Origin: Anaerolineae bacterium | GTDB lineage: Bacteria; Chloroflexota; Anaerolineae; JAAYZQ01 | Length of the DNA stretch: 64,000 nt | Direction of reading: 5' to 3' | Assembly (NCBI GenBank): GCA_041300865.1 | Contig: JBFYTF010000036.1 | Location: 34,604-98,603, forward strand | In this document: one piece after another, positions 1,188 through 57,547 of the stretch | How positions within the stretch are numbered: position 1 is the first letter of the stretch | Layout: each line of letters begins with the position of its first letter | Program-made: the position numbers and the translations under genes | The notes under the pieces: generated by a model | Told to the model about the DNA's origin: nothing | The model's input: only the letters and a program-made list of their open reading frames with translations | The model's database searches: none

Positions 1188-2396
1188 TCAACGGGGCACC
1201 AGGGCAATGCACTCCGCGGGGCAGACATCGGGGCACAGGCCGCAGCCGTAGCACTTTTCCGTGTCCACCGTCGGATAGCCGTCCGCGTCCATGACGTAGG
1301 CCCGGTGCCCGCCGTCGTCGCACGAGATCACGCAGCGGCCGCACTTGGTGCAGCGGCCCTTGTCCACCAGGGCCACGGCGTGCTTCACCGGCCTCAGGGC
1401 CGAGTGCGGCACGATGTTGGGCAGCGCCCTGCCCACGAGCTCCGCGGGTGATCTCATACCCTTTGACTCCAGGTAATAGCTCAGTCCCTCCTTGAGGTCC
1501 GCCACAATATCGTAACCATACAGCATGACCGCCGTGCAGAACTGGACAAGCGTCGCACCCGCGGCCATGTACTCGGCGGCATCGTGCCACGTGGTTGCGC
1601 CGCCACTGGCTGCCACCTTCAGATCCTGCCCGGTGCCCAGTTCGGCCAGATTGCGCAGCTCAAAGGGTTTCAGGTGCGCGCCCACCATGCCGGCGAACGT
1701 CCCCTTGCTGTCGATGGTCGGCAGCGGCGCGAACGTGTCAAGGTCGATGCCGATCAGCCCGTGGCGGGAGTCGCAGGCACACAGGGCCATGGCCCCTGCT
1801 TCCTTGACGGCCCTGGCGATGCTGACGATGTGGGTGACGTCGCCTGTCAGTTTCGGGACCACGGGAAAGCCGTCCGCCGCTTCGACGATCCAGCTCACGA
1901 TCCGGTGGGCTTCTTCCGGGATCTGGCCGATCATGAAGTGCAGCCCTTCGACCGGCGAGTCTGTCGGGCACGACATGGACACCTCCAGGTAGTCGGCCCC
2001 CACGTCAATGGACCGGCGCGTCAGGGTCTGCCACGACTCTTTGGTGGTGCCCCAGATGCTGGTGGCCACAATCTTTTCCGGGAACTCGGCCTTGAGGAGC
2101 CGGATGGCCCGCTCCATCTCGTCCATGTGGAACTCGGATATGTTGTCGATGTTGCCCAGGCCCATGAGCTGCCCCGCGGACCGCGTGCCGGCGATGCACG
2201 GGTAGGCAATGTCCACGACATAGTCCTCCATGGACGTCGTCTTGAGCACGGCGCCGGCCCAGCCGGCCCGAAACGCATCGCGCACCATCTCGTACGTGTC
2301 TGAAGGCGGCGCCGAGGCCAGGATGAACGGATTCTCGAACCGCAAACCGCAATATTCGACCGACAGATCAACGTCCGGAACCTGATAAATCGCCAT
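1188..2396 (-). CDS. preA: NAD-dependent dihydropyrimidine dehydrogenase subunit PreA-like (DHOD-type TIM barrel plus 2x[4Fe-4S] ferredoxin domain)
   Basis: N-terminus is MAIYQVPDVDLSVEYCGLRFENPF. C-terminal motifs are CTKCGRCVISC and CYGCGLCPDVCP. AGGAGG lies upstream of the ATG at 2396 (the ORF track starts at 2423). Confidence 0.85.
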   Translation of the reverse strand: MAIYQVPDVDLSVEYCGLRFENPFILASAPPSDTYEMVRDAFRAGWAGAVLKTTSMEDYVVDIAYPCIAGTRSAGQLMGLGNIDNISEFHMDEMERAIRLLKAEFPEKIVATSIWGTTKESWQTLTRRSIDVGADYLEVSMSCPTDSPVEGLHFMIGQIPEEAHRIVSWIVEAADGFPVVPKLTGDVTHIVSIARAVKEAGAMALCACDSRHGLIGIDLDTFAPLPTIDSKGTFAGMVGAHLKPFELRNLAELGTGQDLKVAASGGATTWHDAAEYMAAGATLVQFCTAVMLYGYDIVADLKEGLSYYLESKGMRSPAELVGRALPNIVPHSALRPVKHAVALVDKGRCTKCGRCVISCDDGGHRAYVMDADGYPTVDTEKCYGCGLCPDVCPAECIALVPR

Positions 2397-2413
2397 GTTT
2401 CCTCCTTGCCCTG

Positions 2414-3775
2414 CTACCCGCACAAGTATTTGTGTATCGCCAGGGCTACCTGCTTTCCCTCAGCGATGGATTGCACCGCGGTGCGCTGCTTCTGCCCGGC
2501 CAGGATGTCGCCCGCGGCATAGATGCCCGGCTCCGACGTCCTGCCTGTCTCGGGATCGACCAGGACGCAGCCATTGCGGGCCGTCTCCAGGCCCGCCACA
2601 CAGCGCAAGAATCCCTCGTCCGGCCGCTGGCCGATGGCGATGACGACCGTGTCGGCCGGCATGACCAGCGTGGACCCGGGCACGTCGACGACGTTGCCCC
2701 GCTCCCACGAGCCCGGCACCTTCCACGCGACGCGCACGCCCTCCAGGGCCACGACGTGCCCGTCCTTGCCCAGGATGCGGCTCGGCCGCACCCGCGAGTT
2801 GATCTGCACCCCCTCTTCGAGCGCCTGCCGCTTGTCGTTCTCGAAGGCATCCATCTCGGCGGGTGTTCGCCGGCTGGTGACGTTGACCGTTTCGGCCCCC
2901 AGCCGCAGCGCGCAGCAGGCCGAGTTCAGCGCCGCGCTGCCGCCGCCGACGACGATCACGTTCTTGCCCACTTTTACTTTGCTGGCGGTGTCGAGCCCCC
3001 GGGCAGCGCGCAGGATGTCCAGCGCCGTGTAGACCCCGGCCAGGTCCTCGCCCTCGATGCCCAGCGAGTATGAAGCCTGCAGGCCCACGGTCAGAAGCAC
3101 GGCGCCAAAGCCCTGCTCCAGAAGGTCAGCCGGGATGAGGCTCTCGTTGACCGGCGTGCCGAGCCTGAGCTCGACGCCCAGATCGCGCACGAGCTGCACT
3201 TCGTATTCAACCACCTCGCGCGGCAGCTTGAACGGCGGGATGACGCTGATGAGAGCACCGCCGGCCTGCTCCTCCTGCTCCAGGACCGTAACCGCGTGGC
3301 CCAACTCCCTGAGCTTGACCGCCGCAGCCAGCCCTGCCGGGCCTGCGCCGACAACCGCCACCGGCGGCGCCGTGATGGGCTGCACGGCCAGGGGCCGGGC
3401 GCCGGCTACCATCTCCCAGTCTGTAAGAAAGCGCTGCAGCGCGCCAATGCGGATCGGATCGGTCAGAGCCTGGCTGCGACAGCGCTCCTCGCACAGGAAC
3501 TCGGTCGGGCACACCCGGCCGCACACGCCGGCCAGGATGTTCTCCTCTCGCAGCAGCCGGACCCCGCCGCGGTAATCGCCAAAGCGGATGCGCCGGATAA
3601 AGCCCCGGACGTCGATGCCGGCCGGACAGCCCTTGGTGCACGGCGCTTCGGCGCACATCAGGCACCGGTTCGCCTCGAAGGCGGCCTGAGTCCGGTCATA
3701 GCCTCGATAGACCTCATCGAAACCCTTCACTCGCTCGGACACGTCTACCAGAGTGGCTTTCATCGCTACGCTCAT
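2414..3775 (-). CDS. preT: Dihydropyrimidine dehydrogenase subunit PreT-like (glutamate-synthase small-subunit family, Fe-S/FAD/NAD)
   Basis: Cys clusters CLMCAEAPCTKGCP and CGRVCP. Two Rossmann motifs, VAVVGAGPAGLAAA and VIVVGGGSAALNSA. The start could be 3775 or 3832. Confidence 0.8.
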   Translation of the reverse strand: MSVAMKATLVDVSERVKGFDEVYRGYDRTQAAFEANRCLMCAEAPCTKGCPAGIDVRGFIRRIRFGDYRGGVRLLREENILAGVCGRVCPTEFLCEERCRSQALTDPIRIGALQRFLTDWEMVAGARPLAVQPITAPPVAVVGAGPAGLAAAVKLRELGHAVTVLEQEEQAGGALISVIPPFKLPREVVEYEVQLVRDLGVELRLGTPVNESLIPADLLEQGFGAVLLTVGLQASYSLGIEGEDLAGVYTALDILRAARGLDTASKVKVGKNVIVVGGGSAALNSACCALRLGAETVNVTSRRTPAEMDAFENDKRQALEEGVQINSRVRPSRILGKDGHVVALEGVRVAWKVPGSWERGNVVDVPGSTLVMPADTVVIAIGQRPDEGFLRCVAGLETARNGCVLVDPETGRTSEPGIYAAGDILAGQKQRTAVQSIAEGKQVALAIHKYLCG

Positions 3776-3798
3776 TGCCCTATGCTCCCTTTCTGTCG

Positions 3799-5025
3799 TC
3801 AGTCTCCGTTCGGACTCGCCGGTTCCTGCCACTTCCCCCAGCCGGCCGCGCCCAGGTCGGGGCTGCCGCCGGCAACCACCTCGCGACCTCGCACGAGGGT
3901 GGAAACGATTCTGCCCTTCAGCCGCAGGCCGGCGTACGCGGTCAAGTCGCTGCGCCCGTGGCGCGGCAGGCCGGCAACCTCCTCGTGGTCCGGGTCAAGC
4001 AGGACCAGGTCGGCGTCGCTGCCCACCTGGACCGCTCCCTTGCGCGGGTACAGGCCCAGCACGCGCGCCGGGCCGGAGCTCAGCAGCCGGCACAGGTCCG
4101 CCCAGGAGATTCTGCCCGGCTCCACGCCGTAGGCCACCACCAGGCGCAGCATCGTCTCCAGGCCCGGAAAACCGGGCAGCCCGTGCTCGTCCTTTTCCTG
4201 GCGCGTGTAGGAACAGTGATCGGTGCCGATGGTCTGGATCCGGCCCGCTCTGATCTCGGGCCAGAGGTCGGCCGCTTCGATGGGCGGGTTCACGTTGCAG
4301 CCCGGCCGGCCCCTGGTCAGCTCCCAGAGAAGATACTGGGGGCAGGTCTCCAGCGTCACGCGCCCGGCGCCCAGCCCGGACACCACCTGGCTAAAACGCT
4401 GGTGGGGCACGTGCAAGATGTGCACCTGCCCGGAACCCTGCGTGCAGGCGTGGGCCGCGATGGCGGCGTAATCATCCATCTTTTCCACGTGCACGAGCAC
4501 CTGGTGCCCGCGGGCCATCGCCCGCTTGACCAGGTCCAGGCCGTCGCCCGCCCGGGCACCCAGTCCGGAGGCGGCCATAAAGACCTTGACCGTCCTGGTC
4601 GTGGCTGCCGCCAGCTGCTCGGTGGAGCGCACCACGGTGTGCACCACGAAATCGCACAGCGACTGCTGCTCCAGGGCCGCGACCTTTTCCTCGAGCTCGA
4701 CCTCGAAGCGGGTGCCCGCCGGATAGGCAAAATCGCCCAGGGTGGTGACCCCGCCCGCCACGGCGGCGGCCGACTCGCCCTCGAACAGGCCGGCCGTGCC
4801 CAGCGAGGAGCGCAGGTGGGTGTGCAGGTCGATCGCTCCCGGCAGCACGATGGCATTCCCGGCCTCCAATATGCGCCTGGCTGCCAGCGGCAGATGGTCG
4901 GCCAGGGCCGCGATCCTGCCCGCCTCGACGGCCACGTCCATGGGCAAGAGCGCCCCATCAGGCACCACAACCCGGCCGCCCTTGATCAGCAGATCTACCA
5001 CAGGGTTCATCTCCGCGGCGGTCAC
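3799..5025 (-). CDS. Cyclic amidohydrolase (dihydropyrimidinase / hydantoinase / dihydroorotase family)
   Basis: Motifs DLHTHLRS (HxH), ETCPQYL and GTDHCSY. The GTG start overlaps the upstream stop (GTGA); an alternative ATG lies at 5010. Confidence 0.8.
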   Translation of the reverse strand: MTAAEMNPVVDLLIKGGRVVVPDGALLPMDVAVEAGRIAALADHLPLAARRILEAGNAIVLPGAIDLHTHLRSSLGTAGLFEGESAAAVAGGVTTLGDFAYPAGTRFEVELEEKVAALEQQSLCDFVVHTVVRSTEQLAAATTRTVKVFMAASGLGARAGDGLDLVKRAMARGHQVLVHVEKMDDYAAIAAHACTQGSGQVHILHVPHQRFSQVVSGLGAGRVTLETCPQYLLWELTRGRPGCNVNPPIEAADLWPEIRAGRIQTIGTDHCSYTRQEKDEHGLPGFPGLETMLRLVVAYGVEPGRISWADLCRLLSSGPARVLGLYPRKGAVQVGSDADLVLLDPDHEEVAGLPRHGRSDLTAYAGLRLKGRIVSTLVRGREVVAGGSPDLGAAGWGKWQEPASPNGD

Positions 5026-5957
5026 ACTGCGGGCCGGGCGTGCAGGTCGCAGCTCCGCCCGGCCTTGATCACCTGGCCGGGAAAGTCCATGTTCAGGACC
5101 TTTTCCGCCCGGCGGACGGCCTCCAGCAGCGCCGGCAGGTCGATCCCGGTGTCGATGTCCATCTCGCTCAGCATGTGCACCATGTCTTCAGTGGCCACGT
5201 TGCCGGCAGCGCCGGGCGCAAAGGGGCAGCCGCCAAGCCCACCGAACGAGGCCTCGAAGCGGCCGATGCCTGCCTGCAGCGCGGCCAACAGGTTGGCGGC
5301 ACCAATCCCCCGCGTGTTGTGAAAGTGCATGACGACGTGCTCCGCGCCCAGCGCCTGGCGCGTCTCGCAGGCCACGTACGCCACCTGCCTGGGATTGGCC
5401 ATCCCGGTCGTGTCGCACAGGTTCAGCTCGACACAGCCCATCTCCAAGAGCCGGCGGCCGATCTCCAGGACGCGGGCCACGGGGACGTCCCCTTCGAAAG
5501 GGCAGCCAAAGACGGTCGACATACTGGCCCGGACGTGCACACCCGCCTCGCGGGCCACGGCCAGGACCGGCCCGAAGCCTGCCAGCGAATCGGCGATGGA
5601 CATGCGCACATTGCTCTGGTTGTGCGACTCGCTGGCGGACACAATGAGGTTCAGCATGCCGATGCCGGCCTCGATGGCGCGCTCCGCCCCCCTCAGGTTG
5701 GGCACCATGGCAAAGCAGGCACAGCGATCCTTGTCGACGCCCTGGACCACCTCCGTCGCGTCGCGCATCTGTGGCACCGCTTTAGGGTGCACGAAGGAGG
5801 TCACCTCCATGCGCCGGATACCGGCAGCGATCAGCGAGTTGATGATCTGCACCTTGTCTGCTGTCTCGATCCAGCCCGGGAGGATCTGAAACCCGTCCCG
5901 CGGGCCCACCTCGATGATCTCGACGCTCTGCGGCAGCGTGTCTTCCCAACCGGGCAT
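5022..5957 (-). CDS. HMG-CoA lyase-like (DRE-TIM metallolyase) protein
   Basis: Motifs EVGPRDGFQ and HFHNTRGIGAAN. A GGGGA RBS lies before the ATG at 5957 (the track starts at GTG 5969). Confidence 0.8.
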   Translation of the reverse strand: MPGWEDTLPQSVEIIEVGPRDGFQILPGWIETADKVQIINSLIAAGIRRMEVTSFVHPKAVPQMRDATEVVQGVDKDRCACFAMVPNLRGAERAIEAGIGMLNLIVSASESHNQSNVRMSIADSLAGFGPVLAVAREAGVHVRASMSTVFGCPFEGDVPVARVLEIGRRLLEMGCVELNLCDTTGMANPRQVAYVACETRQALGAEHVVMHFHNTRGIGAANLLAALQAGIGRFEASFGGLGGCPFAPGAAGNVATEDMVHMLSEMDIDTGIDLPALLEAVRRAEKVLNMDFPGQVIKAGRSCDLHARPAV

Positions 5958-5972
5958 GATCGTCCCCACTTC

Positions 5973-6878
5973 TTACAGCCGTGACCGGCCCAGGATCTCG
6001 CAGGCGACCCGGCCGATGTCGCCAAAGTGCTCCACCACCCGCACGCCCGCCTCCCGCAGGGCAGCACGCTTGGCCTGGGCGCTGCCCAGGCCGCGGTAAA
6101 TCATCGCGCCGGCATGTCCAAAGCGGACGTTGGGCCGGGAGTGGACGCCGGCCACGTAGGCGACCATCGGCTTGGTGAAGCCGCCGCCCTTGATAAACTC
6201 CGCGGCCTCCTCCTCCATGGTCGTGCCGATCTCGCCGAAGAAGGCGACCATTTCTGTCTCTGGATCCTTTTCGAACAGGGCCAGAAAATCGCGCAGGGTC
6301 GTGCCGACGAACGTATCGCCGCCCATGCCGACGGCCGTGGTCTGGCCCAGGCCTGCCTCGTTGATATAGTAGGCCAGGGTCGTGGTGTTGCCCCCGCTGC
6401 GGGACAGAACACCCACCGGTCCCGGGCGAAAGAACTCCCGCGCCGACTTCGAGTTGCCGCCGATCATGCCGACGAGGGCCTTGCCGGGGCTGATGAGTCC
6501 AATGGAGTTGGGCCCGATCACGTAGGCGCTGTACCGGCGCGCATAGGCGATCACCTCCAGCATGTCCTGCTGCGGCACGCGCTCGGGGTGCAGGCCGATC
6601 ACCCCGATCCCGGCATCCAGGGCCTCGATGGCTGCCAGCCTGGCTGCCTGCGCCGGCACAAAGATGGCCGAAGTGTTGAGCTCCGGATGCCGGTCTTTGG
6701 CTTCGAGAACGGTGTCATAGATCGGCACACCGTCGACCACCTGCCCGCCTTTGCCCGGCGTGACACCGGCCAGCACGCGGGTGCCATAGCTCGACATCAA
6801 CCGGATGCGCAGGAGGGCCTCGCGACCGGTAGCTCCCTGGACGACGACGCGGGTGTCGCTATCGACAAGTATGGACAC
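5973..6878 (-). CDS. Succinyl-CoA-synthetase alpha-subunit-like (CoA-binding, phosphohistidine) protein
   Basis: [11 protein letters not shown] at the N-terminus and a GHAGAMI phosphohistidine loop. GTG start preceded by GAGGTGA. Confidence 0.85.
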
Positions 6879-6881
6879 GTT

Positions 6882-7205
6882 TCACCTCTCGTAAACCACG
6901 GGGTCGGCCAACAGGTGCAGGTACCGGTCAAGCCCCTCCAGGGGCAGCAGGATCGAAATCGCTTTCTGTCCGAACAGCTCGCAGTCGAGCTCGCAGCCCA
7001 GGCATTCGACACAGCCCCCGCGCTCGATCTCGGCGAGCGACCAGCGCAGGCCTGGCACGAGGCGCGCCTCGTCGAGGACCAACGGGCCGCCCTGCACCTC
7101 GCACACCTGCAGGCAGGGCCTCGATTCGCACCCGGCACAGAAGTCCAGGTCGATGCACACCACGCCACCGGAACGGACTTTGAATTCGAGCTTTTCGCCA
7201 ATCAC
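6882..7205 (-). CDS. Small 2x[4Fe-4S] ferredoxin-like protein inserted between the ligase beta and alpha genes
   Basis: About 107 aa. Cys motifs CAGCESRPCLQVCE and CVECLGCELDCE. The GTG start overlaps the upstream TGA (GTGA). The longer 140-aa form in the ORF track overlaps the upstream gene. Confidence 0.6.
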   Translation of the reverse strand: MIGEKLEFKVRSGGVVCIDLDFCAGCESRPCLQVCEVQGGPLVLDEARLVPGLRWSLAEIERGGCVECLGCELDCELFGQKAISILLPLEGLDRYLHLLADPVVYER

Positions 7206-8476
7206 GACATGCCTCCTACGCTGGCCTGCCATTCTCCGTGCAGCGTGTGAAAGGCGTGGGCCACGTCCCGTTCCGTGGCGTCGCGCCCCAGGACGCGGAC
7301 CCACTTGCCGGCACTGATGCCGTGCTCGCCCAGGAGCCGGATAGCATCGCCGTCCCAGGCGCCGCGGAAGGCGAGCACGGTCGGAATGCTGGGCTGGCCT
7401 CCCGTGCCGGGATACAGCTCCTTCAGAGCCTTGATGATCCCCCGCGCGGTGTTGTCCAGCTGCTGGCTGGAGACGCAGGATTCAAAGACGTAGCCCTGGA
7501 TTCCGGGCTGGGAGAAGATGACCTTGGTGATGCGGTACAGCTTGGACGCCACCGGGTTGCCCGAGCTGTCGCAGAAATTGACGGGGTAGTAGCCCAGCGG
7601 CACCAGCTCGTCCATGAGGGTGAGGCTCACCCCCGCGCCGACGCAGTCAAAGCCGATGGGCACGTAGTGCTGCTCCTGGCAGAAGGAGAGATCGGGATCG
7701 ATCTGCACAAAGTGCACCGTGCCCCGGTGGTCCCCGGCGTCGATCGTGCCCGCAATGCGCTCGAGGAGCGTCGAGCTGCGGTCGCCGGCGTCCTCTGCAA
7801 TCTCGATGCCCAGGCCGGCCTGCCGGCTCAAGGCATCGCCGTCGATGTCCACGCGCGCGTCGAGAGCAACCGCGCCCGTGGGCGTCAGAGCCAGCGGGTT
7901 AATCTCGAGGAGCTTGCAGTCGTAGCGGCGGTAGACCTCGTACATCTGGCACAGAATGCGCGCCACGTCGAGCTTTTGCTTGGAAGTGATCTGGCTCAGC
8001 GAACGCAGCAGGTTCAGGGCGTCGTAGAGCTGGATCCCGCGCAGGATGTCTACGGGCCACTTGTGCAGGGCATCCGGCCGGCTGGCAACAACCTCCTCAA
8101 TGTCCATTCCTCCCGACTCGCAGACCATGATGGCCGGTGCCCTGGCAGCGGGATCGGCTGCTACCCCAACGTAGAGCTCCTGCTCGATCTGCAACCGCTG
8201 TTCCAGGAGCAGAGCGCCCGGCTTGTGACCTTGTATCGAGCGCGAGAACATGTCCGCCGCGACCTGGAGCAGTTCTGCCTCACACTCGGCGGATTGAATG
8301 CCGCCCGCCTTGCCCCGCTTGCCGGCGTAAATCTGCGCTTTGACCATGACCGGATAGCCCAGCTCGGCGGCGGCGGCGCGGGCCTCTTGCAGGTCGTGAA
8401 CCACGCGGCCGGCAGGCGTGGCGATGCCGGCCCTGCGCAAGAGATCCTTGCCATGATGTTCCAGTAGTTTAGCCAC
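7202..8476 (-). CDS. Succinyl-CoA-synthetase beta-subunit-like (ATP-grasp) protein
   Basis: (M)AKLLEHHGKDLLRRAGI and VMVKAQIYAGKRGKAGG resemble the SucC N-terminus. GGGGGAGGGG lies 7 nt before the GTG at 8476. Confidence 0.85.
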   Translation of the reverse strand: MAKLLEHHGKDLLRRAGIATPAGRVVHDLQEARAAAAELGYPVMVKAQIYAGKRGKAGGIQSAECEAELLQVAADMFSRSIQGHKPGALLLEQRLQIEQELYVGVAADPAARAPAIMVCESGGMDIEEVVASRPDALHKWPVDILRGIQLYDALNLLRSLSQITSKQKLDVARILCQMYEVYRRYDCKLLEINPLALTPTGAVALDARVDIDGDALSRQAGLGIEIAEDAGDRSSTLLERIAGTIDAGDHRGTVHFVQIDPDLSFCQEQHYVPIGFDCVGAGVSLTLMDELVPLGYYPVNFCDSSGNPVASKLYRITKVIFSQPGIQGYVFESCVSSQQLDNTARGIIKALKELYPGTGGQPSIPTVLAFRGAWDGDAIRLLGEHGISAGKWVRVLGRDATERDVAHAFHTLHGEWQASVGGMS

Positions 8477-8518: not shown

Positions 8519-9688
8519 CTAGCGGAGAGTACTCCACGGGACAAGGGCGTAGCCCTCCATCAGGCGCCGCGCTGTGCGCCCGAGGGCCGCCTGCGTAAGC
8601 CGGAGCGACCCGTCCTGGGCCTCCACGCAGGCGTCCACTTCGATGACGCCTGCCGGATGCCCAATGCGGACCACCGGCTGGTCGTGCTTCTCGGCCCTGG
8701 AGACCTGGTGCACCAGGGTGCCGGGGATCTTGGCTGCCGCCCCGGTACACACCGTCCCGGTGACGGGATATGCCTTGTGCATGCGCAGCATGAACAGCAG
8801 CCTGGAAACCAGATCCACGCCGTCGGCCTTGATGGTGTTGCCTGTGGTAAAGTCCAGGTAGTCGGCAGGCGGGCTGACCATAGCAAAGAAGGGCAGGTAA
8901 GGGCTCTTCTGGGCGGCATCCTGCCAGTGGTCGACGATACCCACCGCCGCGGCTGCCGTGCCGCGGATACGCTCGATCCGGTCGTTCAGATCGCGGTCGG
9001 CATCGATGGCCGCCGGCACTTCGGTGCCGCCGAGGCCCATATCCGCGGCGAGGACAAAGACGCAGGGAGTGCCGGCGTCGACGATCGAGACCTCAACGCA
9101 GCCCACCCCGGGCACCTCCAGCGCGTCGACGGCATTCCCCGTCGGCAGGAGCTTGCCGGTGATGGCGCCCGCGGTGTCTGCAAAGTCCAGGGCAATCCGG
9201 GCGCCCGTCCCCGGCACGCCGTCGATGTGATAGTCCCCCTCGACCGCGGCCTTGCCGTTCTTGACCGGCACGTCGGCAACGAGGATGCAGCGCGTGTTGG
9301 TCTGGTGGATGCGCACCCTGGTCACCGGCTCCACGGCATCCACCAGCCCCTCGTCGATGGCGTACGGTCCCACGGCCGACGAGATGTTGCCGCAATTGCC
9401 GGCATAGTCGACAAAGGGCTGGGTGATGCTTACCTGGCCGAACGTATAGTCCACGTCCGCGTCGGCCCGCGTCGACCGCCCGATGATCGCCAGCTTGCTG
9501 GTCAGGGCGTCGGCGCCGCCCAGGCCATCGATCTGCCGCACGTCGGGGCTGCCATACAGCTTCAGGATGACGGCGTCGCGCCGCCGCACGTCGGCGGGCA
9601 GCTCACTGCGCATGATGAACAGGGCCCGGCTGGTGCCGCCGCGCATGATCACCGTCCGCACTCGTTTCTGCTCTTCCTGGATCGTCAT
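8519..9688 (-). CDS. PrpF family isomerase (methylaconitate / 3-methylitaconate isomerase-like)
   Basis: Motifs RTVIMRGGTSRALF and YAGNCGNISSAVGPYA. RBS AAGGGGGA. Confidence 0.8.
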   Translation of the reverse strand: MTIQEEQKRVRTVIMRGGTSRALFIMRSELPADVRRRDAVILKLYGSPDVRQIDGLGGADALTSKLAIIGRSTRADADVDYTFGQVSITQPFVDYAGNCGNISSAVGPYAIDEGLVDAVEPVTRVRIHQTNTRCILVADVPVKNGKAAVEGDYHIDGVPGTGARIALDFADTAGAITGKLLPTGNAVDALEVPGVGCVEVSIVDAGTPCVFVLAADMGLGGTEVPAAIDADRDLNDRIERIRGTAAAAVGIVDHWQDAAQKSPYLPFFAMVSPPADYLDFTTGNTIKADGVDLVSRLLFMLRMHKAYPVTGTVCTGAAAKIPGTLVHQVSRAEKHDQPVVRIGHPAGVIEVDACVEAQDGSLRLTQAALGRTARRLMEGYALVPWSTLR

Positions 9689-9690: not shown

Positions 9691-10206
9691 TTATCCCCCT
9701 TCGTTCCGAGCCCGGCGGCGCGTTTGCTCTCGCACGTAGGCCGTCATCCCCCCGGCGTCCACGATCTCGACCAGGAAGTCGGGCAGAGGCGAGAAAGCAG
9801 CCTCAAACGGGCGGCTGAGGTCCTGGATCCGGCCACTGGCCAGGTCGACTCGCACCCGGTCCCCATCCTGGATGGCGTCGATGGCCTGCGGGCAAGTGAG
9901 CGCCGGCAATCCGAGGTTGATGGCATTCCGGAAAAAGATGCGCGCGAAGGAATGGGCCACGAGGCACGAGATGCCCAGCGCCTTGAGTGCGAGGGGCGCG
10001 TGTTCTCGCGAGCTGCCGCAGCCCATGTTCTCCCCGGCAACGAGAATGTCCCCCGGTTGGACCTCCTTGCTGAAAGCCGGGCGCACATCTTCGAGGCAAT
10101 GCGCGGCCAACTCGCGAGGATCGGTCAAGCTCAGATAGCGCCCTGGCAACAACTGGTCGGTGTCGACGTTGTCGCCAAGCTTCCAGACGCGTCCTTCAAT
10201 GATCAT
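9691..10206 (-). CDS. Aconitase-family dehydratase small subunit (LeuD-like)
   Basis: MIIEGRVWKLGDNVDTDQLLPG and GENMGCGSSREHA. Confidence 0.85.
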   Translation of the reverse strand: MIIEGRVWKLGDNVDTDQLLPGRYLSLTDPRELAAHCLEDVRPAFSKEVQPGDILVAGENMGCGSSREHAPLALKALGISCLVAHSFARIFFRNAINLGLPALTCPQAIDAIQDGDRVRVDLASGRIQDLSRPFEAAFSPLPDFLVEIVDAGGMTAYVREQTRRRARNEGG

Positions 10207-10215
10207 ACGCTCCAC

Positions 10216-11487
10216 CTAGCCCAGGTCGTCGGGGTGGGCGATACGCCCCACCACGGCCGAAGCCGCGGCCACTGCCGGCGAGGAGAGGTAGACCTCGCTC
10301 TTGGGGTGGCCCATGCGACCCACAAAGTTGCGGTTCGAGGTCGAGATCACCCGCTCACCGGCGGCCAACAGGCCCATGTGGCCACCAAAGCACGGGCCGC
10401 AGGTGGGCGTGCTGACGGCCGCGCCGGCGCGGGCAAGGATCTCCAGCAGGCCCTCGCCCAAGGCCTGCAAAAAGATGTTTTGGGTGGCCGGGATGACGAT
10501 GAGGCGCACGCTGCTGGACACCCGGCGCCCCGCCAGGATCTGGGCCGCCACCCGCAGGTCTTCGATGCGCCCGTTTGTGCAGGAGCCGATAAAGACGGCG
10601 TCCAGGGACGTGCCTGCCACCTCGCAGAGCGGCCGGACGTTGTCCGGGGACGACGGGCAGGCCACCTGGGGCTCCATGCCGCTCACGTCGATGGTGGTCA
10701 CCGAGGCATAGCGCGCCCCGGCATCGCCGGCCAGCGGCAGCCACTCGTCGATCCCCAACGCCTGGAGGTAGCGCCGCGTCTCCTCGTCGGGCGGGATGAT
10801 CGTGTTCTTGGCCCCAGCCTCCACGCCCATGTTGCACAGGGTCAGGCGCTGGTCGGTGCTGAAACCCTCGATCACTGGGCCCGTCAGCTCCATGCAGCGG
10901 TACAGGGCGCCGGCGACCCCGATCCGGCCGATGGTGTGCAGAATCAGGTCCTTGGCCCCGACCCAGGGCTCGAGCCGGCCCTCGTAGATAAAGCGCATCG
11001 TCTCCGGTACCCGCAGCCAGATGGTGCCGAGGGCCATGGCGGCTGCCACGTCGGTGCTGCCAAAGCCGGACGCAAACGCTCCCAGCGCGCCAAACGAGGT
11101 GGTGTGCGAATCGGCGCCCACCACCACGCTGCCGGGCCGGATCAAGCCCTCCTCGGGAAGAAGGGCGTGCTCGATGCCAAAGTTCCCACCCCTGCCTGCC
11201 TCGTAGTAGTGGTCCAGGCCCTGCTCCCGGGCAAAGTCGCGCAGCATCTTTGTTTTTTCGGCGCCCTCGAGCGTGGCGTTGGGGACAAAGTGATCGCACA
11301 CGATGGCCACCTTGTGCTGGTCAAAGACCCGGCCCACTTCCATGCGGCGCAGCTCGAGGACGGCCAGCGGCATCGTCGTGTCCTGGCCAAAGACCAGGTC
11401 CACGCCGGCCTGCACGATGTCACCGGCCCGCACCTGATCCTGGCCCGACGCCCGGGCCAGGATCTTTTCGGTCAGCGTCATTTCCAT
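10216..11487 (-). CDS. Aconitase-family dehydratase large subunit (LeuC / homoaconitase-like)
   Basis: Motifs VVGADSHTTS, IGSCTNGRIEDL and TPTCGPCFGGHMG (Fe-S ligands). Confidence 0.85.
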   Translation of the reverse strand: MEMTLTEKILARASGQDQVRAGDIVQAGVDLVFGQDTTMPLAVLELRRMEVGRVFDQHKVAIVCDHFVPNATLEGAEKTKMLRDFAREQGLDHYYEAGRGGNFGIEHALLPEEGLIRPGSVVVGADSHTTSFGALGAFASGFGSTDVAAAMALGTIWLRVPETMRFIYEGRLEPWVGAKDLILHTIGRIGVAGALYRCMELTGPVIEGFSTDQRLTLCNMGVEAGAKNTIIPPDEETRRYLQALGIDEWLPLAGDAGARYASVTTIDVSGMEPQVACPSSPDNVRPLCEVAGTSLDAVFIGSCTNGRIEDLRVAAQILAGRRVSSSVRLIVIPATQNIFLQALGEGLLEILARAGAAVSTPTCGPCFGGHMGLLAAGERVISTSNRNFVGRMGHPKSEVYLSSPAVAAASAVVGRIAHPDDLG

Positions 11488-11515
11488 GGTCGCTTTACCC
11501 TCCGGCCGGGCCGCG

Positions 11516-12508
11516 TTACAGCAGCAGTGACAGGACGGCCTTCTGCGCGTGCAGCCTGTTCTCGAGCTGGTCGTAGACGATAGCCCGCGGCCCGTCCATG
11601 ACGCTGTCGGTGACCTCCAGGTTGCGGTCGGCGGGCAGCGGGTGCATGAACTTCACGTTGCGGTCGCCCAGGTCGAGGAGCTCGTCGCTGACGATCCACT
11701 GCTTCAGCTCCTCGTCGCGCCGGGCAACTTCCTCGGCAGGCAGGGTCAGGCTGCCCCACGACTTGGCGTAAAAGATGTGCGCGTCGCGTGCTGCCTCTTG
11801 GATGTCGTGGACGACGTTGAACTCGGCCCCGCTCTCCTCGGCAAAGGCGGCGGCCCGGGCCGTGTACTCGGGGTCCATGTCGAACCCTTCGGGATAGGCG
11901 ACGGTCAGGTCGATGCCCAGGGTCGCAGCCGCCAACAGCCAACCCTGCGGCACGCCGGGCGACTTGGCGCGGGGCGAATAGGCCCAGCTGACCACGATCT
12001 TCTTGTCGTCGAACGTGCGCAGCTTCTCGCGAACCGTCATCACGTCGGCCAGCACCTGGCACGGATGCTCGCCGTCGTCCAGCATGTTGATGATCGGGAT
12101 GCGCGCGGCGTCGGCCATGGTGGTCAGGATCCGCCGCGACTCGCCGTAGGGCTCGATGTTGTACATCCGGATGGCGATGCCGTCCAGGTAGCGGTCCATG
12201 GCCCGCGCCGTATCCACCCAGGTCTCCTTGTGTGCCAGCTGCAGGTCGTCGGCGGTGTAGAACTGGGCGTGGCCACCCAGCTGCGTCATGCCCGTTTCGA
12301 AGGAGATGCGCGTGCGCGTCGATGGCTTGCCAAAGAGCATGCCCAGGCTCTTGCCTTCCAGGACGTGGTGCGGCGCCCGCCGTGCCTGGGCGCGTTTCAG
12401 CTCGGCGGCGGTGTCGAGGAGGAAGTAGAGGTCCTCCCGATCATAGTCTCCCAGGGTGATAAAGTCGCGCCCTCGGAAGTTTGCTCGGTTCGCTAGCGAT
12501 AGATCCAT
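11516..12508 (-). CDS. Aspartate/ornithine carbamoyltransferase-family protein with non-canonical second-substrate motifs
   Basis: STRTR and HPCQ are present. The protein has FMHPLP instead of HCLP, and YAKSWGS instead of DxWxSMG. Confidence 0.8.
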   Translation of the reverse strand: MDLSLANRANFRGRDFITLGDYDREDLYFLLDTAAELKRAQARRAPHHVLEGKSLGMLFGKPSTRTRISFETGMTQLGGHAQFYTADDLQLAHKETWVDTARAMDRYLDGIAIRMYNIEPYGESRRILTTMADAARIPIINMLDDGEHPCQVLADVMTVREKLRTFDDKKIVVSWAYSPRAKSPGVPQGWLLAAATLGIDLTVAYPEGFDMDPEYTARAAAFAEESGAEFNVVHDIQEAARDAHIFYAKSWGSLTLPAEEVARRDEELKQWIVSDELLDLGDRNVKFMHPLPADRNLEVTDSVMDGPRAIVYDQLENRLHAQKAVLSLLL

Positions 12509-12535: not shown

Positions 12536-13921
12536 CTAGCCGGTCAGGGCAAAGAGCGCGCTGACGTCGTCTGCCTGTTCGATGTTGGTCACAAAAGCAA
12601 CGATCTTGGCGACGCGGTCCTCGTCCAGTTCCCGCCGCGCCAGCTTCGCGAACTTGGCCTGGATGTCCTCGGGGGTCACCGGGTTGCGGTAGTCGCCTTT
12701 TGGGTCGTCGACGGTGGACACGTACTCGCTGCCGTCCTGCATCGTGACGGTGACCGAGCAGGAATAGTGCTCCGGATAGCGGCGCTCGAACTCCTCGTCG
12801 ACCACCCACTCTACCCTGGTCATCAGCTCGCGCACGTCGGGACGGAAGATGTTCTGTTCCGTGAAGGTGTCGACGTCGATCTTGCCGTCGATGAGCGCGA
12901 TGGCGGCCTGCCAGGGCATGCTGAACTGCGTGTCGACGACGTTCTGCGGGTCGCGCTTGCGCGGCATGGCCAGCAGCCGGATGGTATAGTCGGACGAACG
13001 GATAAAGATGCTCTTGATCTCTTGCCAGTTGGGCCGGTGCCGCTGGACGATGTCCAGGCAGGCATCGAGGTGGCCGGCCGAGTAGCGGCAGCAGGGATAG
13101 ACCTTGATGCTCGAATCGGCAAAGGTCCACTCGGTCCCCAGGCCTTCGGTGATCCACTTGGTGTCGTACTGCAGCTGGTAAGAGTAGGCCTGCATGAAGC
13201 CGTCGCGGCCCTCGATGATCTCGGGTGGCCCGTTGAATCCCTTCTGGGCCATGAGGGCGGACATGATGCCGACCATCGCCGGGTGCCCGGCCTGGAGCCG
13301 CTTGGTGTACGACCCGGACGTGTTCCAGGCCATCAGCCCACCGACCTGGCTGCCGGCGATGCCCTGGGCGTAGACCGTCTGCTGGACGTCGAGCCCCAAC
13401 AGCTTCGCCGCCGAGATCGTCGCCCCAAACGTCCCGCACGTGCTGGACGGGTGGAAGCCCTGGTAGTAGGTCTTGCCCAGGAAGGCCGAGCCCAGGCGGC
13501 AGACGATCTCGTTGCCCAGGGCAACGGCCTCGATGACCTGCTTGCCCGTGGCGTGCAGCTTCTCGCCCAGCGCCAGGCTCACCGGAATGCTGGCCACGCT
13601 GGGGTGCGCGTTCGATTCGTTGTGGTCGTCGGCAAAGTCAAAGGCATAGCCCTGCATGGCGTTGGCAAAGGCCGCATGCGGAGCAGCGACCTTGCGGCCG
13701 TGGCCGATGACCGTGCTCTCCGGGGGCCCGCCCAGCTCCAGGGCCAGCTCGGTCGCGATCCGGCTCGAGTCGAGCCGCTTCGAACCGATCATTGAACCCA
13801 AAAGATCGAGGACCAGGTAGGCCGCGCGCTTGCGTGCCTTCTCGGGCAGATCCTCGTAGCGGAGACTGACTGTCAACTCGGCAATGAGCTCCGCAATGGG
13901 TTTGTTCCTGCTGTCAGTCAT
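12536..13921 (-). CDS. MmgE/PrpD family protein (2-methylcitrate-dehydratase-like)
   Basis: 461 aa. N-terminus IAELIAELTVSLRYEDLPEKARKRAAYLVLDLLG is typical of PrpD-family proteins. RBS GGAGTGAGGAAG. Confidence 0.8.
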   Translation of the reverse strand: MTDSRNKPIAELIAELTVSLRYEDLPEKARKRAAYLVLDLLGSMIGSKRLDSSRIATELALELGGPPESTVIGHGRKVAAPHAAFANAMQGYAFDFADDHNESNAHPSVASIPVSLALGEKLHATGKQVIEAVALGNEIVCRLGSAFLGKTYYQGFHPSSTCGTFGATISAAKLLGLDVQQTVYAQGIAGSQVGGLMAWNTSGSYTKRLQAGHPAMVGIMSALMAQKGFNGPPEIIEGRDGFMQAYSYQLQYDTKWITEGLGTEWTFADSSIKVYPCCRYSAGHLDACLDIVQRHRPNWQEIKSIFIRSSDYTIRLLAMPRKRDPQNVVDTQFSMPWQAAIALIDGKIDVDTFTEQNIFRPDVRELMTRVEWVVDEEFERRYPEHYSCSVTVTMQDGSEYVSTVDDPKGDYRNPVTPEDIQAKFAKLARRELDEDRVAKIVAFVTNIEQADDVSALFALTG

Positions 13922-13954: not shown

Positions 13955-15115
13955 CTAGGCCAGGACCTGGACGCTGATGGAATTCTTCGGGCAATAGTTG
14001 ACGCAGAAGGTGCACTGAATGCACTCCCCCTGCACGATATAGTTGTAGCCCTCGGCCTGGCGGATGGCCTGCACGGGGCAGACGGTCCGGCAGATGTCAC
14101 ATTGGTCGCAGCTTTCAGGGTCGATGGTCACCCGCAGCGCCTGGAGGGCCATCTCGTTCACCTGGCGCATGCCCTCTAGCCCGGTCCCCCGCATCTCGTC
14201 CATGGTGCAACCCTGCTCGTCGAGCCACCTGCCCAGACCTTTCACCAGCTTCGGAAAGATCTTCGGCCCCTCAACCATGGCTGCGGTGCACACACCCACG
14301 CCGGTGGCGCCGCCGATGATCATCTCCGCGGCATCCTCCCAGTTCGTGACACCGCCGATGCCGATGATCGGTAGCTTGGTCCGGCGGTAGATCTCGACCA
14401 CGTAACCGATGGCGTTCTCCTTGATGGCGCGCCCGGAGAGCTCGGGCATCCAGTTGCCGATGGTGCGCGCCACCTTGGGGCGGCGCGTGGTCACGTCGAA
14501 GGAAATCGCCGGGAAAATGGTGTCGCGGGAGGCGATGGCGTCGGCGCCACCCTCTTCGACGGCCCTGACCAGGTCGATCAGGTTCGACGGTTCGGGCAGC
14601 AGCTTGCCAATGACCGGCACCCGGACGGCCTTCTTTGCCGCCTGGATGACCTCGTACGTCCGCTTTGCAGACTGAACGGCACCAATACCCGACCCCTCGA
14701 CGACGTTGGGCGCCGAGCCAAAGGCCGACAGCTCGAGCGCATCGGCGCCCGCTTCAACGGCCATGGGTGCCATGCGCGCAATGTCTTCGATGGGCGTGTG
14801 GGTGACGGCCTGGAGGCTGACAATGACCGGCACGCCCCCCTCTTTGGCGATGGCAATCTCACGTTCGCACCATTCTTCGAAAGAATGAGCCGACCAGGGA
14901 TCGGTTAGCACCAGGCTGAAGCGGTCCTTCTTCTTGTGCGACAGGCTGATCTTCTGGCCCCCCGACGGCACGACGCCAATCGACTTGGTCACGACGGCAC
15001 CGGGACGGCCACTGGCCATCCGCTTCAGGGAGGCACCGGTCACGCCAGGAGGTCCGGCAGCGACGATGAACGGATTCTCCAGTTCCAACTCACCGATCCG
15101 AATGCTCAGGTCCAT
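13955..15115 (-). CDS. Second DHOD/PreA-like flavoprotein with a C-terminal 2x[4Fe-4S] domain
   Basis: MDLSIRIGELELENPFIVAAGPP at the N-terminus; CDQCDICRTVCP and CIQCTFCVNYCP at the C-terminus. The ATG at 15115 lies 4 nt after the upstream stop. The track's N-terminal extension to 15370 was rejected. Confidence 0.8.
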   Translation of the reverse strand: MDLSIRIGELELENPFIVAAGPPGVTGASLKRMASGRPGAVVTKSIGVVPSGGQKISLSHKKKDRFSLVLTDPWSAHSFEEWCEREIAIAKEGGVPVIVSLQAVTHTPIEDIARMAPMAVEAGADALELSAFGSAPNVVEGSGIGAVQSAKRTYEVIQAAKKAVRVPVIGKLLPEPSNLIDLVRAVEEGGADAIASRDTIFPAISFDVTTRRPKVARTIGNWMPELSGRAIKENAIGYVVEIYRRTKLPIIGIGGVTNWEDAAEMIIGGATGVGVCTAAMVEGPKIFPKLVKGLGRWLDEQGCTMDEMRGTGLEGMRQVNEMALQALRVTIDPESCDQCDICRTVCPVQAIRQAEGYNYIVQGECIQCTFCVNYCPKNSISVQVLA

Positions 15116-15119
15116 GAGC

Positions 15120-15953
15120 CTATTTCCTTTCGTACGAATCAGATGCCTGCGGCGCAGGCTGGTAAAGATCTGGGCGATTGTACCGCCAAAGCCCTGGGAT
15201 GGTCTTGTAGAGCTTTGGAAAAGCCAGGCTTTCCTCTTCCTGACGCAGGTAACACAGCCGGTCGAGGTCCAGGTCGGCGACCAGGACCCCCTCCTTGCTG
15301 CTGGCGGCAAGCTCCCCTTCCGGCCCGCAGATGAAGGCAAAGCCGTCTTCCACGCCAAAGAGGTTGACACACGAGGCCGTGTAGATCAGGTTCTCGGTGG
15401 CACGCGCCTGGATGAGGGTGCCCCACACCGCCGCGAGGTGGTAGAGCATGCCGCCTGTGGGAAAGAGAACCAGGTCGGCGCCCTGCATGGCCAGGGTCCG
15501 GCACAGCTCCGGGAACCAGGCCTCCCAGCAGATGAGGAGCCCGACCCTGCCCCACGGCGTCTCGGCCAGGGCAAAGCAGTTGCCGGGCACCGTCTCTTTG
15601 CCCGAGAGCTGGTCGTCGACGGGCGAAGGGATCATCTTGGCGTACGTGGCCGCCACCGATCCATCGGGGCCCAGCAGCTGGTAGACGTTGTGATAGACCT
15701 GAGTGCCGGGCACCGGCTCCATGAAACCGTAGGCCACGTGCATGCCGAACTCCCGGGCCACGGCCTTCAGGGCATCGCCGGCGGCATAGTCCGTGGGCCC
15801 GCTGTAAGGTCCGGGGTAACACTCGGGAAAGGCGACGATCTGCGCGCCGGCCTCGCCGGCCTGCCGGGCATAGGCCACGGCGCGCTCGACGTTCGCGCTC
15901 TCCTCGGGCCGGATGGTGCGGGGCTGAACGACAGCCAGGCGAACCTTACCCAT
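15120..15953 (-). CDS. Carbon-nitrogen hydrolase (nitrilase superfamily; beta-ureidopropionase / N-carbamoyl-amidase-like)
   Basis: Motifs VAFPECYPGPY and LLICWEAWFPE (Glu/Cys of the catalytic triad). GGAGGG lies 6 nt before the ATG at 15953. Confidence 0.8.
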   Translation of the reverse strand: MGKVRLAVVQPRTIRPEESANVERAVAYARQAGEAGAQIVAFPECYPGPYSGPTDYAAGDALKAVAREFGMHVAYGFMEPVPGTQVYHNVYQLLGPDGSVAATYAKMIPSPVDDQLSGKETVPGNCFALAETPWGRVGLLICWEAWFPELCRTLAMQGADLVLFPTGGMLYHLAAVWGTLIQARATENLIYTASCVNLFGVEDGFAFICGPEGELAASSKEGVLVADLDLDRLCYLRQEEESLAFPKLYKTIPGLWRYNRPDLYQPAPQASDSYERK

Positions 15954-15955
15954 GG

Positions 15956-17113: not shown

Positions 17114-17181
17114 GTCTCCACTCCGTGCCACGCACACCAGGTCCATGTGCGCGTGGCACCGATGTCTCTGCCCTCGGACGT

Positions 17182-18408: not shown

Positions 18409-18473
18409 TGCTTCTCTCCTTTTCTATGGTTCCACGGTCCAATGTCGCTTGGAGCGTGCCTTGCTGCCGCTCC

Positions 18474-22172: not shown

Positions 22173-22192
22173 GCTGCCTCGTGCCTCCTAAT

Positions 22193-23488: not shown

Positions 23489-23525
23489 AGTTTCCCTCCT
23501 TTCTCTCCCTGTGCCCGCTCTCGGC

Positions 23526-25235: not shown

Positions 25236-25376
25236 AACCGTTCCCCCTTGATCTACGCTACTCATCTTCGAGCTTGAGCACGGACTGGGAAAGACGCTTG
25301 CGGGCCGGGAACAGACCTATGGGCCAAAGAGCGTTGCACGCATGGCTGACAAGCCGGCACCGGGCAGACATTGTAT

Positions 25377-30182: not shown

Positions 30183-30396
30183 TTTCTCTCTCCTTTTTGT
30201 TTCAAGCGTTCTTTTCGAACCAGCGGACGGCTGCGAAAAACGCACATGGACTTTTGCGCCGACCCCCATGGATGTGTCGGGCACAGCGTCTCATCCCGCA
30301 ATCCCCTTATCAGACTCTTGTTGGGCTACGCCTCCTTCTCTGGTGCTAAGCAAAGACCCGCACCCCACTTTGCGTCCGAGCCTCGCTCCAGCCGCC

Positions 30397-57443: not shown

Positions 57444-57475
57444 GATGATCCTCGTCCTCCTTGACGGCAATAGCG

Positions 57476-57525
57476 GGTCCCCCCGGCGGTCCCTGGCTGC
57501 TCGCTTCGGGTGAGCCGGGGGGACC
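57476..57525 (-). promoter_or_regulatory. Long-stem intercistronic RNA structure
   Basis: Perfect 12-bp arms ggtccccccggc / gccggggggacc enclose 26 nt that contain a ttcg-looped inner hairpin. No U-tract. Confidence 0.5.
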
Positions 57526-57547
57526 GAGTGCGCGGGATTGCGGTAGA

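Follow-up and report, generated by a model that had tools for sequence, protein, structure and literature searches.

We analysed a 64,000-nucleotide stretch of DNA from an Anaerolineae bacterium of the phylum Chloroflexota (contig JBFYTF010000036.1, positions 34,604 to 98,603), here called the window, with a focus on the acyl-CoA ligase and lyase genes at its positions 5022-8476. Our reading of the window's open reading frames (ORFs) shows that this region is filled by four tightly packed genes, all on the minus strand. The beta-like gene (8476..7202) has a GTG start and encodes a 424-amino acid (aa) ATP-grasp large subunit of an ADP-forming acyl-CoA ligase that resembles citryl-CoA synthetase (CCS); its frame is open back to position 8515, yet 15 homologues align from MA(K/R)LLE. 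It is followed by a small ORF (7205..6882) for a 107-aa, ferredoxin-like protein with eight cysteines, the putative third subunit of the ligase; by the alpha-like gene (6878..5973), which encodes a 301-aa protein with a CoA-binding domain and a GHAGA phosphohistidine loop; and by the gene of a DRE-TIM acyl-CoA lyase of the HMGL family (5969..5022), whose product has 315 aa, or 311 aa if the alternative ATG at 5957 is used. SucC-like and SucD-like genes parted by a small Cys-rich gene, with a gene resembling that of 3-hydroxy-3-methylglutaryl-CoA (HMG-CoA) lyase next to them, are what a first-pass annotation of the window had described, and the details that it gave are borne out by the letters: the GTG of the small ORF (7205-7203) overlaps the TGA stop of the beta gene (7204-7202) in a GTGA tetranucleotide, the alpha translation contains RFGHAGAMI, and the lyase contains both EVGPRDGFQ and HFHNTRG, in addition to GLGGCPFAPGAAGNVATED. 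An AGGAGG sequence is found 7 nucleotides 5′ of the small ORF start, and the alpha gene starts 3 nucleotides past the small ORF stop.

By homology, the ligase pair belongs to the CCS branch of the superfamily that comprises succinyl-CoA synthetase (SCS) and ATP-citrate lyase (ACL), and is not sucCD. In a Pfam scan, the beta protein matched ATP-grasp_2 (164 bits) but not Ligase_CoA, while the alpha protein matched CoA_binding, Ligase_CoA and Succ_CoA_lig. Both subunits fall short of the NCBIfam equivalog cut-offs, with 207 bits against 370 for SucC and 285.7 bits against 336 for SucD, and a canonical, adjacent sucC and sucD pair (540 and 452.6 bits) is present on another contig of the same genome. 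The alpha subunit is most similar to SCS alpha in the Protein Data Bank (PDB) (2yv2_A, 278.9 bits, aligned through GHAGA), and its CoA_binding and Ligase_CoA domains together with GHAGA are those of an alpha subunit of the CCS/ACL branch. The full-length beta subunit is about equally close to Thermus SCS beta (its top PDB match, 158.9 bits) and to the Hydrogenobacter CCS chain 6hxq_B (139.1 bits), but its C-terminal, acid-binding half (residues 225-424) has 6hxq_B as its best match (52.6 bits, E 4e-13), with the best SCS beta reaching 28.8 bits, and is thus of the CCS/ACL type of organic-acid domain. Motifs common to the beta protein and CCS are DHRG and NF.D..GNP...K.Y.ITK.I.S.PGI.G. The SCS beta motifs NGAGL, DxGGGA and NIFGGI are replaced in the beta protein by GFDCVGAG, DSSGNP and ESCVSSQQ, and these replacements are kept in 15 clade members. 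The Pfam domain Citrate_bind is not reached by the window's beta protein itself, unlike by the fused relatives described below. For the beta subunit, the label 'SucC/SucD-like' is better replaced by citryl-CoA-synthetase-like. The ligase looks active, as the first-pass annotation had supposed from its GHAGA loop.

The small ORF is conserved and, as judged by sequence comparison, is a coding gene under purifying selection. A database search returned at least 94 homologues of 94-122 aa with 49-89% identity, none of which has a Pfam domain, and the eight-Cys pattern, C23-x2-C26-x4-C31-x3-C35 and C65-x2-C68-x2-C71-x3-C75, is kept in 92 of these 94. Pairwise ratios of non-synonymous to synonymous substitution rates (dN/dS) of the small gene are 0.10-0.39 in most comparisons with unsaturated dS, and 0.097 between loci L019 and L020; the exception is the comparison of the window with L020, which gave 0.55 at a high dS of about 1.1. 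At 10 of 12 loci, the small gene starts in an ATGA or GTGA overlap with the beta stop, behind a GGAGG-type site. At locus L005 a TTG or ATG start is found at an equivalent tight junction, and at L013 the start is uncertain. The alpha gene lies 0-3 nucleotides after the small gene, or overlaps it. A chance ORF is ruled out by the homologues, the purifying selection and the recurrent start overlap. A frameshift artefact splitting a fused gene was also rejected, as 12 independent loci show the same split, each time with the small gene starting in tight coupling to the end of the beta gene.

The origin of the small protein can be read from its longer relatives. An exhaustive search with a profile of the small-protein alignment gave 120 cluster representatives, about 12 of which are proteins of 470-540 aa that carry the domain at their C-terminus. 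According to Pfam, these long proteins consist of ATP-grasp_2, in most cases a middle domain of the ACL 'Citrate_bind' type, and the Cys-rich tail. One of them, P0242, has thousands of homologues. The best 120 of these are almost all 505-607 aa long, and all 117 within the fused size range display the eight-Cys pattern in their C-terminal region. Where named, the source organisms are Spirochaetes, Gemmatimonadetes, Acidobacteria, Marinimicrobia, Zixibacteria, Calditrichaeota, Cloacimonetes, KSB1, Eremiobacteraeota, Chloroflexota and a Thermofilaceae archaeon. Five fused loci were examined, and in four of them a SucD-like gene comes next after the fused gene, together with a 258-267-aa citrate-synthase-fold gene, the best PDB match of which is citryl-CoA lyase (CCL; 6hxp_A, 167 bits). 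An aconitase-family gene follows in three of those loci, and an Iso_dh-type gene is near in the same three (in L030 it is upstream, on the opposite strand).

In a maximum-likelihood tree built on the ligase part, with one sequence, the genome's own SucC, as outgroup, the split clade is united with two fused proteins, P0226 and P0231, at an SH-aLRT of 97, and the large fused clade is sister to them (SH-aLRT 93). P0226 is on a long branch in this tree. P0231 retains the motifs of the window's clade, IGFDGIGTG, PVNFCDTSGNP and CCVSSQ, and past the conserved W...GG end of its beta part a linker of about 25 residues leads into MLEFATFS..., a stretch that corresponds to the N-terminal end of the split protein. 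The split and fused modules are 29-39% identical, with all cysteines aligned. Considering (i) the fusion of the domain to ligase large subunits and (ii) the occurrence of fused forms in the window's own clade, the 107-aa protein is a ligase domain that has become detached, rather than an electron carrier inserted between the subunit genes. In the simplest reading of these sequences, it was detached by gene fission in the linker, within a branch that ancestrally bore the iron-sulfur (Fe-S) module.

Binding of clusters by the eight-Cys module is predicted, and the prediction is well supported. In an alignment of 97 split and fused sequences, C23, C26, C31, C35, C71 and C75 are invariant and C65 and C68 are nearly so; G14, E67, E72, G79, L87 and P88 are also invariant. 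The two four-Cys cluster motifs announced by the first-pass annotation are present as far as the eight cysteines are concerned, but the first, CxxCxxxxCxxxC, is not the canonical CxxCxxCxxxC. The second motif is canonical, except that it has no trailing Pro. C68 is replaced by Asp (CTEDLxCELDC) in the most distant split variants, at positions 11272-11595 of both L019 and L020, and in the fused protein P0231 an Asp stands in place of the first motif's fourth Cys. Asp at such positions is a known ligand variant of [4Fe-4S] and [3Fe-4S] clusters, and the C68 position is that of the Asp cluster ligand of Pyrococcus furiosus ferredoxin. These substitutions are natural ligand changes that could serve as probes of cluster type.

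Structure prediction is compatible with this but gave no significant match. A first AlphaFold2 (AF2) model, made from 19 sequences, had a pLDDT of 72.7 and gave no usable Foldseek match. A model from a deeper alignment had a pLDDT of 93.1, and among the PDB chains nearest to it, though never significantly so, there are many ferredoxins and Fe-S domains: the FwdF polyferredoxin, the N-terminal di-cluster domain of ABCE1, and the P. furiosus and Desulfovibrio gigas ferredoxins, with TM scores of up to 0.62 when normalised on the small-ferredoxin targets. A PDB profile search with the small protein returned weak matches only (2-oxoglutarate oxidoreductase delta subunit, E 0.037; NdhI, E 0.18), none of them significant, and no NCBIfam family matches the small protein. 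Zinc might be bound in place of an Fe-S cluster, but this is less likely in view of the CxxCxxCxxxC motif, the changes from Cys to Asp and the Fe-S proteins among the structural neighbours.

Ligases of the SCS/CCS/ACL superfamily are textbook non-redox enzymes. Because the CCS of Hydrogenobacter is active although it has no such module, the Fe-S part of the window's ligase most likely stands outside the chemistry. An electron-transfer role is unlikely. A structural or a redox- or oxygen-sensing element of the ligase would be its most likely function, for which the N-terminal 2x[4Fe-4S] domain of ABCE1 offers a functional analogy, as it is a di-cluster domain on a nucleotide-dependent, non-redox enzyme. 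The structural match of this domain to the AF2 model (6tmf_d, probability 0.69, root-mean-square deviation 3.4 Å over 83 columns) is not significant, and no sequence relationship between the two was shown.

The partners of the ligase are conserved with it. Wherever a related locus spans the whole set (10 loci), the genes come in the order beta, Fe-S, alpha and HMGL type, and two further loci, which are truncated, agree with this order as far as they go. The gene order in which the first-pass annotation had seen a module is thus conserved. The HMGL-like protein matches the Pfam domain HMGL-like with 153.6 bits, exceeds the cut-off of the NCBIfam HMG-CoA lyase subfamily PRK05692 (345.3 bits against 246), and has the HMG-CoA lyases 6nds_A (289 bits) and 1ydo_A (279 bits) as its best PDB matches. 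Its translation has the full set of catalytic motifs (R-D, H-x-H, Cys-loop and Asn). It is the sole HMGL-domain gene of HMG-CoA lyase size found in the genome.

Directly upstream of the ligase, on the same strand, lies a gene (8519..9688) for a PrpF-fold protein similar to 3-methylitaconate-delta-isomerase (Mii), which scores 444 bits with Eubacterium barkeri Mii (3g7k_A), against 287 with PrpF (2pvz_A) and about 229 with oxalomesaconate isomerases (6p3j_A). It is preceded by the two genes of an aconitase-family hydratase resembling LeuCD and DmdAB (9691..11487, minus strand; LeuC-like 11487..10216, LeuD-like 10215..9691). The LeuD-like subunit passes the cut-off of the NCBIfam 'LeuD/DmdB family' TIGR02087 (205.5 bits against 109), and both hydratase subunits remain under the equivalog cut-offs of the leucine pathway (206 bits where 246 are required, and 578 where 611 are). 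The ligase genes are immediately preceded by LeuC-like, LeuD-like and PrpF-fold genes in 10 of 11 related loci. A MmgE/PrpD-family gene (12536..13921, minus strand), present in most related loci and absent from the more distant L019 and L020, is an optional part of the module; its product scores best in the PDB with iminodisuccinate epimerase (142 bits), followed by cis-aconitate decarboxylases (about 134 bits). Neither a B12-dependent 2-methyleneglutarate mutase nor a dimethylmalate lyase was found in the operon. Upstream of position 9986 in L013, next to the set of beta, Fe-S, alpha and HMGL-type genes, a second beta and alpha pair (38% and 52% identical to those of the window) takes the place of the LeuCD-like and Mii-like genes; no Fe-S ORF was detected between the two genes of this pair.

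Combining these findings, we propose the following route. Starting from an acid of the itaconate or methylitaconate type, the Mii-like isomerase and the LeuCD/DmdAB-like hydratase would yield (R)-citramalate or 2,3-dimethylmalate, with citraconate or dimethylmaleate as the intermediate. The ligase would then use ATP, via the phosphohistidine of GHAGA, to form a beta-hydroxyacyl-CoA, citramalyl-CoA or dimethylmalyl-CoA, which the HMG-CoA-lyase-family enzyme would cleave into acetyl-CoA or propionyl-CoA and pyruvate. CCS activates a CH2-COOH arm that adjoins a C(OH)(COOH) centre; if (R)-citramalate or 2,3-dimethylmalate were activated likewise, the products would, by established chemistry, be beta-hydroxyacyl-CoAs that an HMG-CoA-lyase-type enzyme can cleave. 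The presence of a Mii-like isomerase and a LeuCD/DmdAB-like hydratase upstream favours such a job, and citramalate or dimethylmalate is the most likely ligase substrate on this genomic evidence. The activate-then-cleave module for a hydroxy-dicarboxylate that the first-pass annotation had envisaged is therefore the reading best supported by synteny and homology, in its citramalate or dimethylmalate form. The paired HMG-CoA-lyase-type enzyme probably splits a branched hydroxy-acid at the end of the breakdown of a ring compound, and the ligase-lyase module would form the lower branch of a 19-gene catabolic operon for nitrogen heterocycles.

The homology of the proteins, the fusion and fission of the module, its synteny and the selection on the small gene are observed, and in this sense a real and conserved three-part ligase with its lyase is encoded here; the identity of the substrate, the binding of a cluster and the role of the module are deduced from them. 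Taken as a whole, a CCS-branch ligase of three genes with a split Fe-S module and a lyase, acting in a citramalate- or dimethylmalate-type route, is an interpretation that we favour with some confidence. Several points weigh against it: (i) the lyase is most like true HMG-CoA lyases, and 3-hydroxy-3-methylglutarate would fit it equally; (ii) the acid-binding loops of the beta subunit (GFDCVGAG, ESCVSSQQLD) are unlike those of SCS, Hydrogenobacter CCS and the fused clade, so that the substrate cannot be read from homology or active-site residues; (iii) the origin of the itaconate-type acid upstream in the operon is not established; (iv) the small protein reaches only 17.9 bits on Pfam Fer4_21, against a cut-off of 35; (v) all Foldseek matches of its model are non-significant (best E 0.27, none at or below 0.001); and (vi) the whole ligase-lyase family is known from genes alone.

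Other explanations must be measured against the same evidence. That the pair is an ordinary SCS is hardly credible: despite the Thermus SCS beta as top full-length match of the beta subunit and the strong likeness of the alpha subunit to SCS alpha, both subunits are under the equivalog cut-offs, the genome has its canonical sucCD elsewhere, the succinate-site motifs GGGA and NIFGGI are replaced, and the pair sits in a conserved catabolic operon. The proviso of the first-pass annotation that the pair should differ from an ordinary sucCD ortholog is thus answered. It had also taken the small gene for an inserted ferredoxin gene and an unexplained redox partner, a view that gives way before the homologous domain fused to CCS-like large subunits in many phyla and in the window's own clade. 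In its stronger form, this view would make the 107-aa protein a free 2x[4Fe-4S] ferredoxin that serves AFOR, XDH and a PreA-like reductase without PreT partner and is placed between the ligase genes incidentally. The operon does encode several ferredoxin-using or Fe-S enzymes, and L005 has a PreA-like gene with no PreT partner. We nevertheless regard it as very unlikely, given that 117 of 117 sister-clade proteins, and P0226 and P0231 as well, have the domain on the same polypeptide as the large subunit, that the fused loci have no such reductases nearby, and that all related loci retain the position and the overlapping start, whether PreT or AFOR is encoded there or not. The module thus goes with the ligase irrespective of the redox genes around it, which argues strongly against a free ferredoxin for the operon's reductases.

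The identity of the substrate leaves more room. In a tricarboxylate module, the LeuCD-like protein would be a hydratase of aconitase type that forms citrate or a near analogue, the ligase a true citryl-CoA synthetase, and the HMGL-family enzyme a non-homologous replacement for CCL that yields acetyl-CoA and oxaloacetate. Such a module would explain the CCS-like C-terminal half of the beta subunit, the pairing of sister-clade ligases with CCL-like, aconitase-type and Iso_dh-type genes, and the tricarboxylate enzyme-like PrpD/CAD protein in the operon; moreover, citryl-CoA and HMG-CoA differ solely by a COO− in place of a CH3. We consider it unlikely, since the isomerase is far nearer to Mii (444 bits) than to the aconitate-type PrpF (287), the hydratase is in the LeuD/DmdB family, and the acid-binding loops are unlike those of Hydrogenobacter CCS and the CCL-linked clade. 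Furthermore, where a CCS-branch ligase would be expected to have a CCL of citrate-synthase fold as its partner, the gene downstream is of the HMGL family, with CCL-like partners confined to the sister clade, and this exchange of the lyase partner suggests a changed substrate. Alternatively, 3-methylglutaconate could be hydrated to 3-hydroxy-3-methylglutarate (HMG), activated by the ligase, and cleaved by a genuine HMG-CoA lyase to acetyl-CoA and acetoacetate, in keeping with the 345 bits of the lyase on the HMG-CoA lyase subfamily model (cut-off 246) and with the characterised HMG-CoA lyases (279-289 bits) as its best PDB matches. This, too, appears quite improbable, because HMG is without the tertiary carboxylate expected of CCS-like substrates, the Mii- and DmdAB-type partners indicate 2-methylsuccinate or 2,3-dimethylsuccinate skeletons, and acetoacetate-using genes were not seen in the operon. 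In addition, the HMGL family also includes an (R)-citramalyl-CoA lyase, that of Chloroflexus, which Friedmann and colleagues are said to have assigned to it in 2007. The citramalate or dimethylmalate route is hence the one that we favour, with citrate-type and HMG substrates still in contention.

Known systems show both likenesses and differences. The CcsA/CcsB ligase and Ccl lyase of Hydrogenobacter thermophilus (6HXQ, 6HXP) likewise combine a two-subunit ADP-forming ligase with a separate lyase that cleaves a beta-hydroxyacyl-CoA, and CcsA is nearest to the C-terminal half of the window's beta subunit, with DHRG and GNP...K.Y.ITK common to both. However, CcsA (429 aa) has no Fe-S domain and its acid-binding loops are unlike the window's, and Ccl has a citrate-synthase fold and operates in the reductive tricarboxylic acid cycle, whereas the window's lyase is a DRE-TIM enzyme in a catabolic context. 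The fused CCS-like large subunits of about 505-560 aa (P0422, P0436, P0450) belong to the sister clade and share the homologous module and the adjoining alpha gene, but their module is fused and their neighbours are the CCL-like lyase and the aconitase- and Iso_dh-type genes, instead of a split module with HMGL, Mii-like and LeuCD-like partners. With SucCD, the ligase shares the superfamily, the ATP-grasp N-domain and the GHAGA phosphohistidine of the alpha subunit; it differs in its third, Fe-S component, in the replaced succinate-site motifs and in its scores below the cut-offs.

On the side of the pathway, the closest parallel is the nicotinate fermentation of E. barkeri (Mii, DmdAB, Dml), to which the window is alike in its Mii-like gene beside a LeuCD/DmdAB-family hydratase and in its predicted intermediates of dimethylmaleate/dimethylmalate or citraconate/citramalate type. 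Unlike that pathway, the window's operon has neither a gene of the Dml type (isocitrate-lyase family) nor a B12 mutase, and cleavage would use ATP-dependent CoA activation and an HMGL-type lyase, so that an acyl-CoA is released where the known pathway releases a free acid. The window's lyase, in turn, passes the HMG-CoA lyase subfamily cut-off and has the catalytic motifs of HMG-CoA and (R)-citramalyl-CoA lyases, but is coupled to a free-acid ligase and not to a CoA-transferase, carboxylase or hydratase route.

The genes around the module belong to the same single-strand block and encode AFOR, a SsnA-like amidohydrolase, a fused XDH, a class-III aminotransferase, a tandem isochorismatase, a CN-hydrolase, a PreA-like reductase, an OTCase-like carbamoyltransferase, a hydantoinase-like amidohydrolase, PreT and PreA. 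The upper half of the operon (1188-5025 and 13955-25265 of the window, minus strand) comprises the SsnA-like and hydantoinase-like amidohydrolases, the fused XDH, PreT/PreA and the OTCase-like carbamoyltransferase. PreA passes its own equivalog cut-off (361 bits against 335), and the fused XDH has an FAD-FeS-Moco architecture and is closest to selenium-dependent XDH. Two Bmp/PnrA-type ABC importers and more XDH subunits are encoded upstream. It resembles the reductive pathway of uric-acid breakdown described not long ago, among whose enzymes are YgfK, SsnA and an XDH homologue together with a hydantoinase and a carbamoyltransferase (PMC12507026), but in the window this upper half is joined to a lower pathway for branched dicarboxylates. 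Because plain purine or uracil has no branched C5 or C6 skeleton, the substrate may be a carbon-substituted base. In one variant of the route, a 5-substituted uracil, such as 5-carboxymethyluracil, or a 7-deazapurine (7-deazaguanine, preQ-type) would be reduced, ring-opened and decarbamoylated in the manner of uric acid (PMC12507026), and the resulting 2-(aminomethyl)succinate-type acids would be converted to itaconate or methylitaconate, then to citramalate or dimethylmalate, and finally to an acyl-CoA and pyruvate. The passage from a 5-carboxymethyl-uracil- or 7-deazapurine-type ring through a 2-(aminomethyl)succinate-type acid to itaconate-type acids is speculation. That the eight-Cys module is a redox or oxygen switch on the ligase and, at the same time, the operon encodes an undescribed anaerobic route from a carbon-substituted nucleobase to an acyl-CoA and pyruvate is a joint proposition that we put forward only tentatively and consider doubtful.

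The ligases of this branch are uncharacterised, citryl-CoA-synthetase-like enzymes marked by an Fe-S domain. Within the literature that could be searched, we found no description of a ferredoxin domain in CCS- or SCS-type ligases or of the present gene combination. There is no NCBIfam model for the small protein or one that names the fused proteins correctly, and their public names are 'succinyl-CoA synthetase beta subunit', 'acetate--CoA ligase family protein', 'ATP-grasp domain-containing protein' and 'hypothetical protein'. Labels such as the first and the last of these mislead metabolic reconstructions. A conserved Fe-S module on a large, mostly uncultured ligase branch would imply a layer of control or assembly that has gone unrecognised, and if it were a redox or oxygen switch, the branch would comprise the first redox-controlled members of the SCS/CCS/ACL superfamily. 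A CCS-like ligase that is re-partnered with HMGL and Mii/DmdAB-like enzymes suggests an ATP-dependent, thioester-retaining alternative to the ending of the pathway by dimethylmalate lyase, and the window may give a handle on the use of nitrogen heterocycles by an abundant group of Anaerolineae.

As for the distribution of the split form, a scan of 400 genomes of the phylum with the small-protein profile recovered the window's genome and one marginal match, with no others, and a profile scan of genome contigs gave eight loci, all from metagenome-assembled genomes assigned to Anaerolineales, Anaerolineae or 'Chloroflexia'. The two scans indicate that the split clade is rare among species representatives, though common in metagenomes.

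Some further features of the loci deserve mention. On a Cloacimonetes contig (L022, 8001-9572), a fused beta-FeS gene has neither an alpha gene nor one for a lyase beside it, but is found next to carboxyltransferase and Tex genes. Between the CCL-like and aconitase-type genes of three other fused loci lies a conserved ORF of 177-180 aa without a Pfam domain (L021 11301-11834, L029 10343-10885, L030 10661-11194), and in L023 a 181-aa ORF with a weak HD-domain match occupies the same position. In the window, the carbamoyltransferase gene (11516-12508, minus strand) passes the ornithine carbamoyltransferase model TIGR00658 narrowly (290.6 bits against 280.85) and fails NF001986 (294.6 against 306), and it is absent from the otherwise syntenic loci L007, L009 and L011. 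A 566-aa ORF (56454-58151, minus strand) has a weak, sub-threshold match to DUF5591, the ArcS C1 domain (24.6 bits against 26). The Bmp/PnrA-type binding proteins, which are of nucleoside or nucleobase type, are encoded at 29142-30284 and 40370-42385 on the minus strand, each with its own permease and ATPase genes, and one of them is a 671-aa protein with a duplicated Bmp domain.

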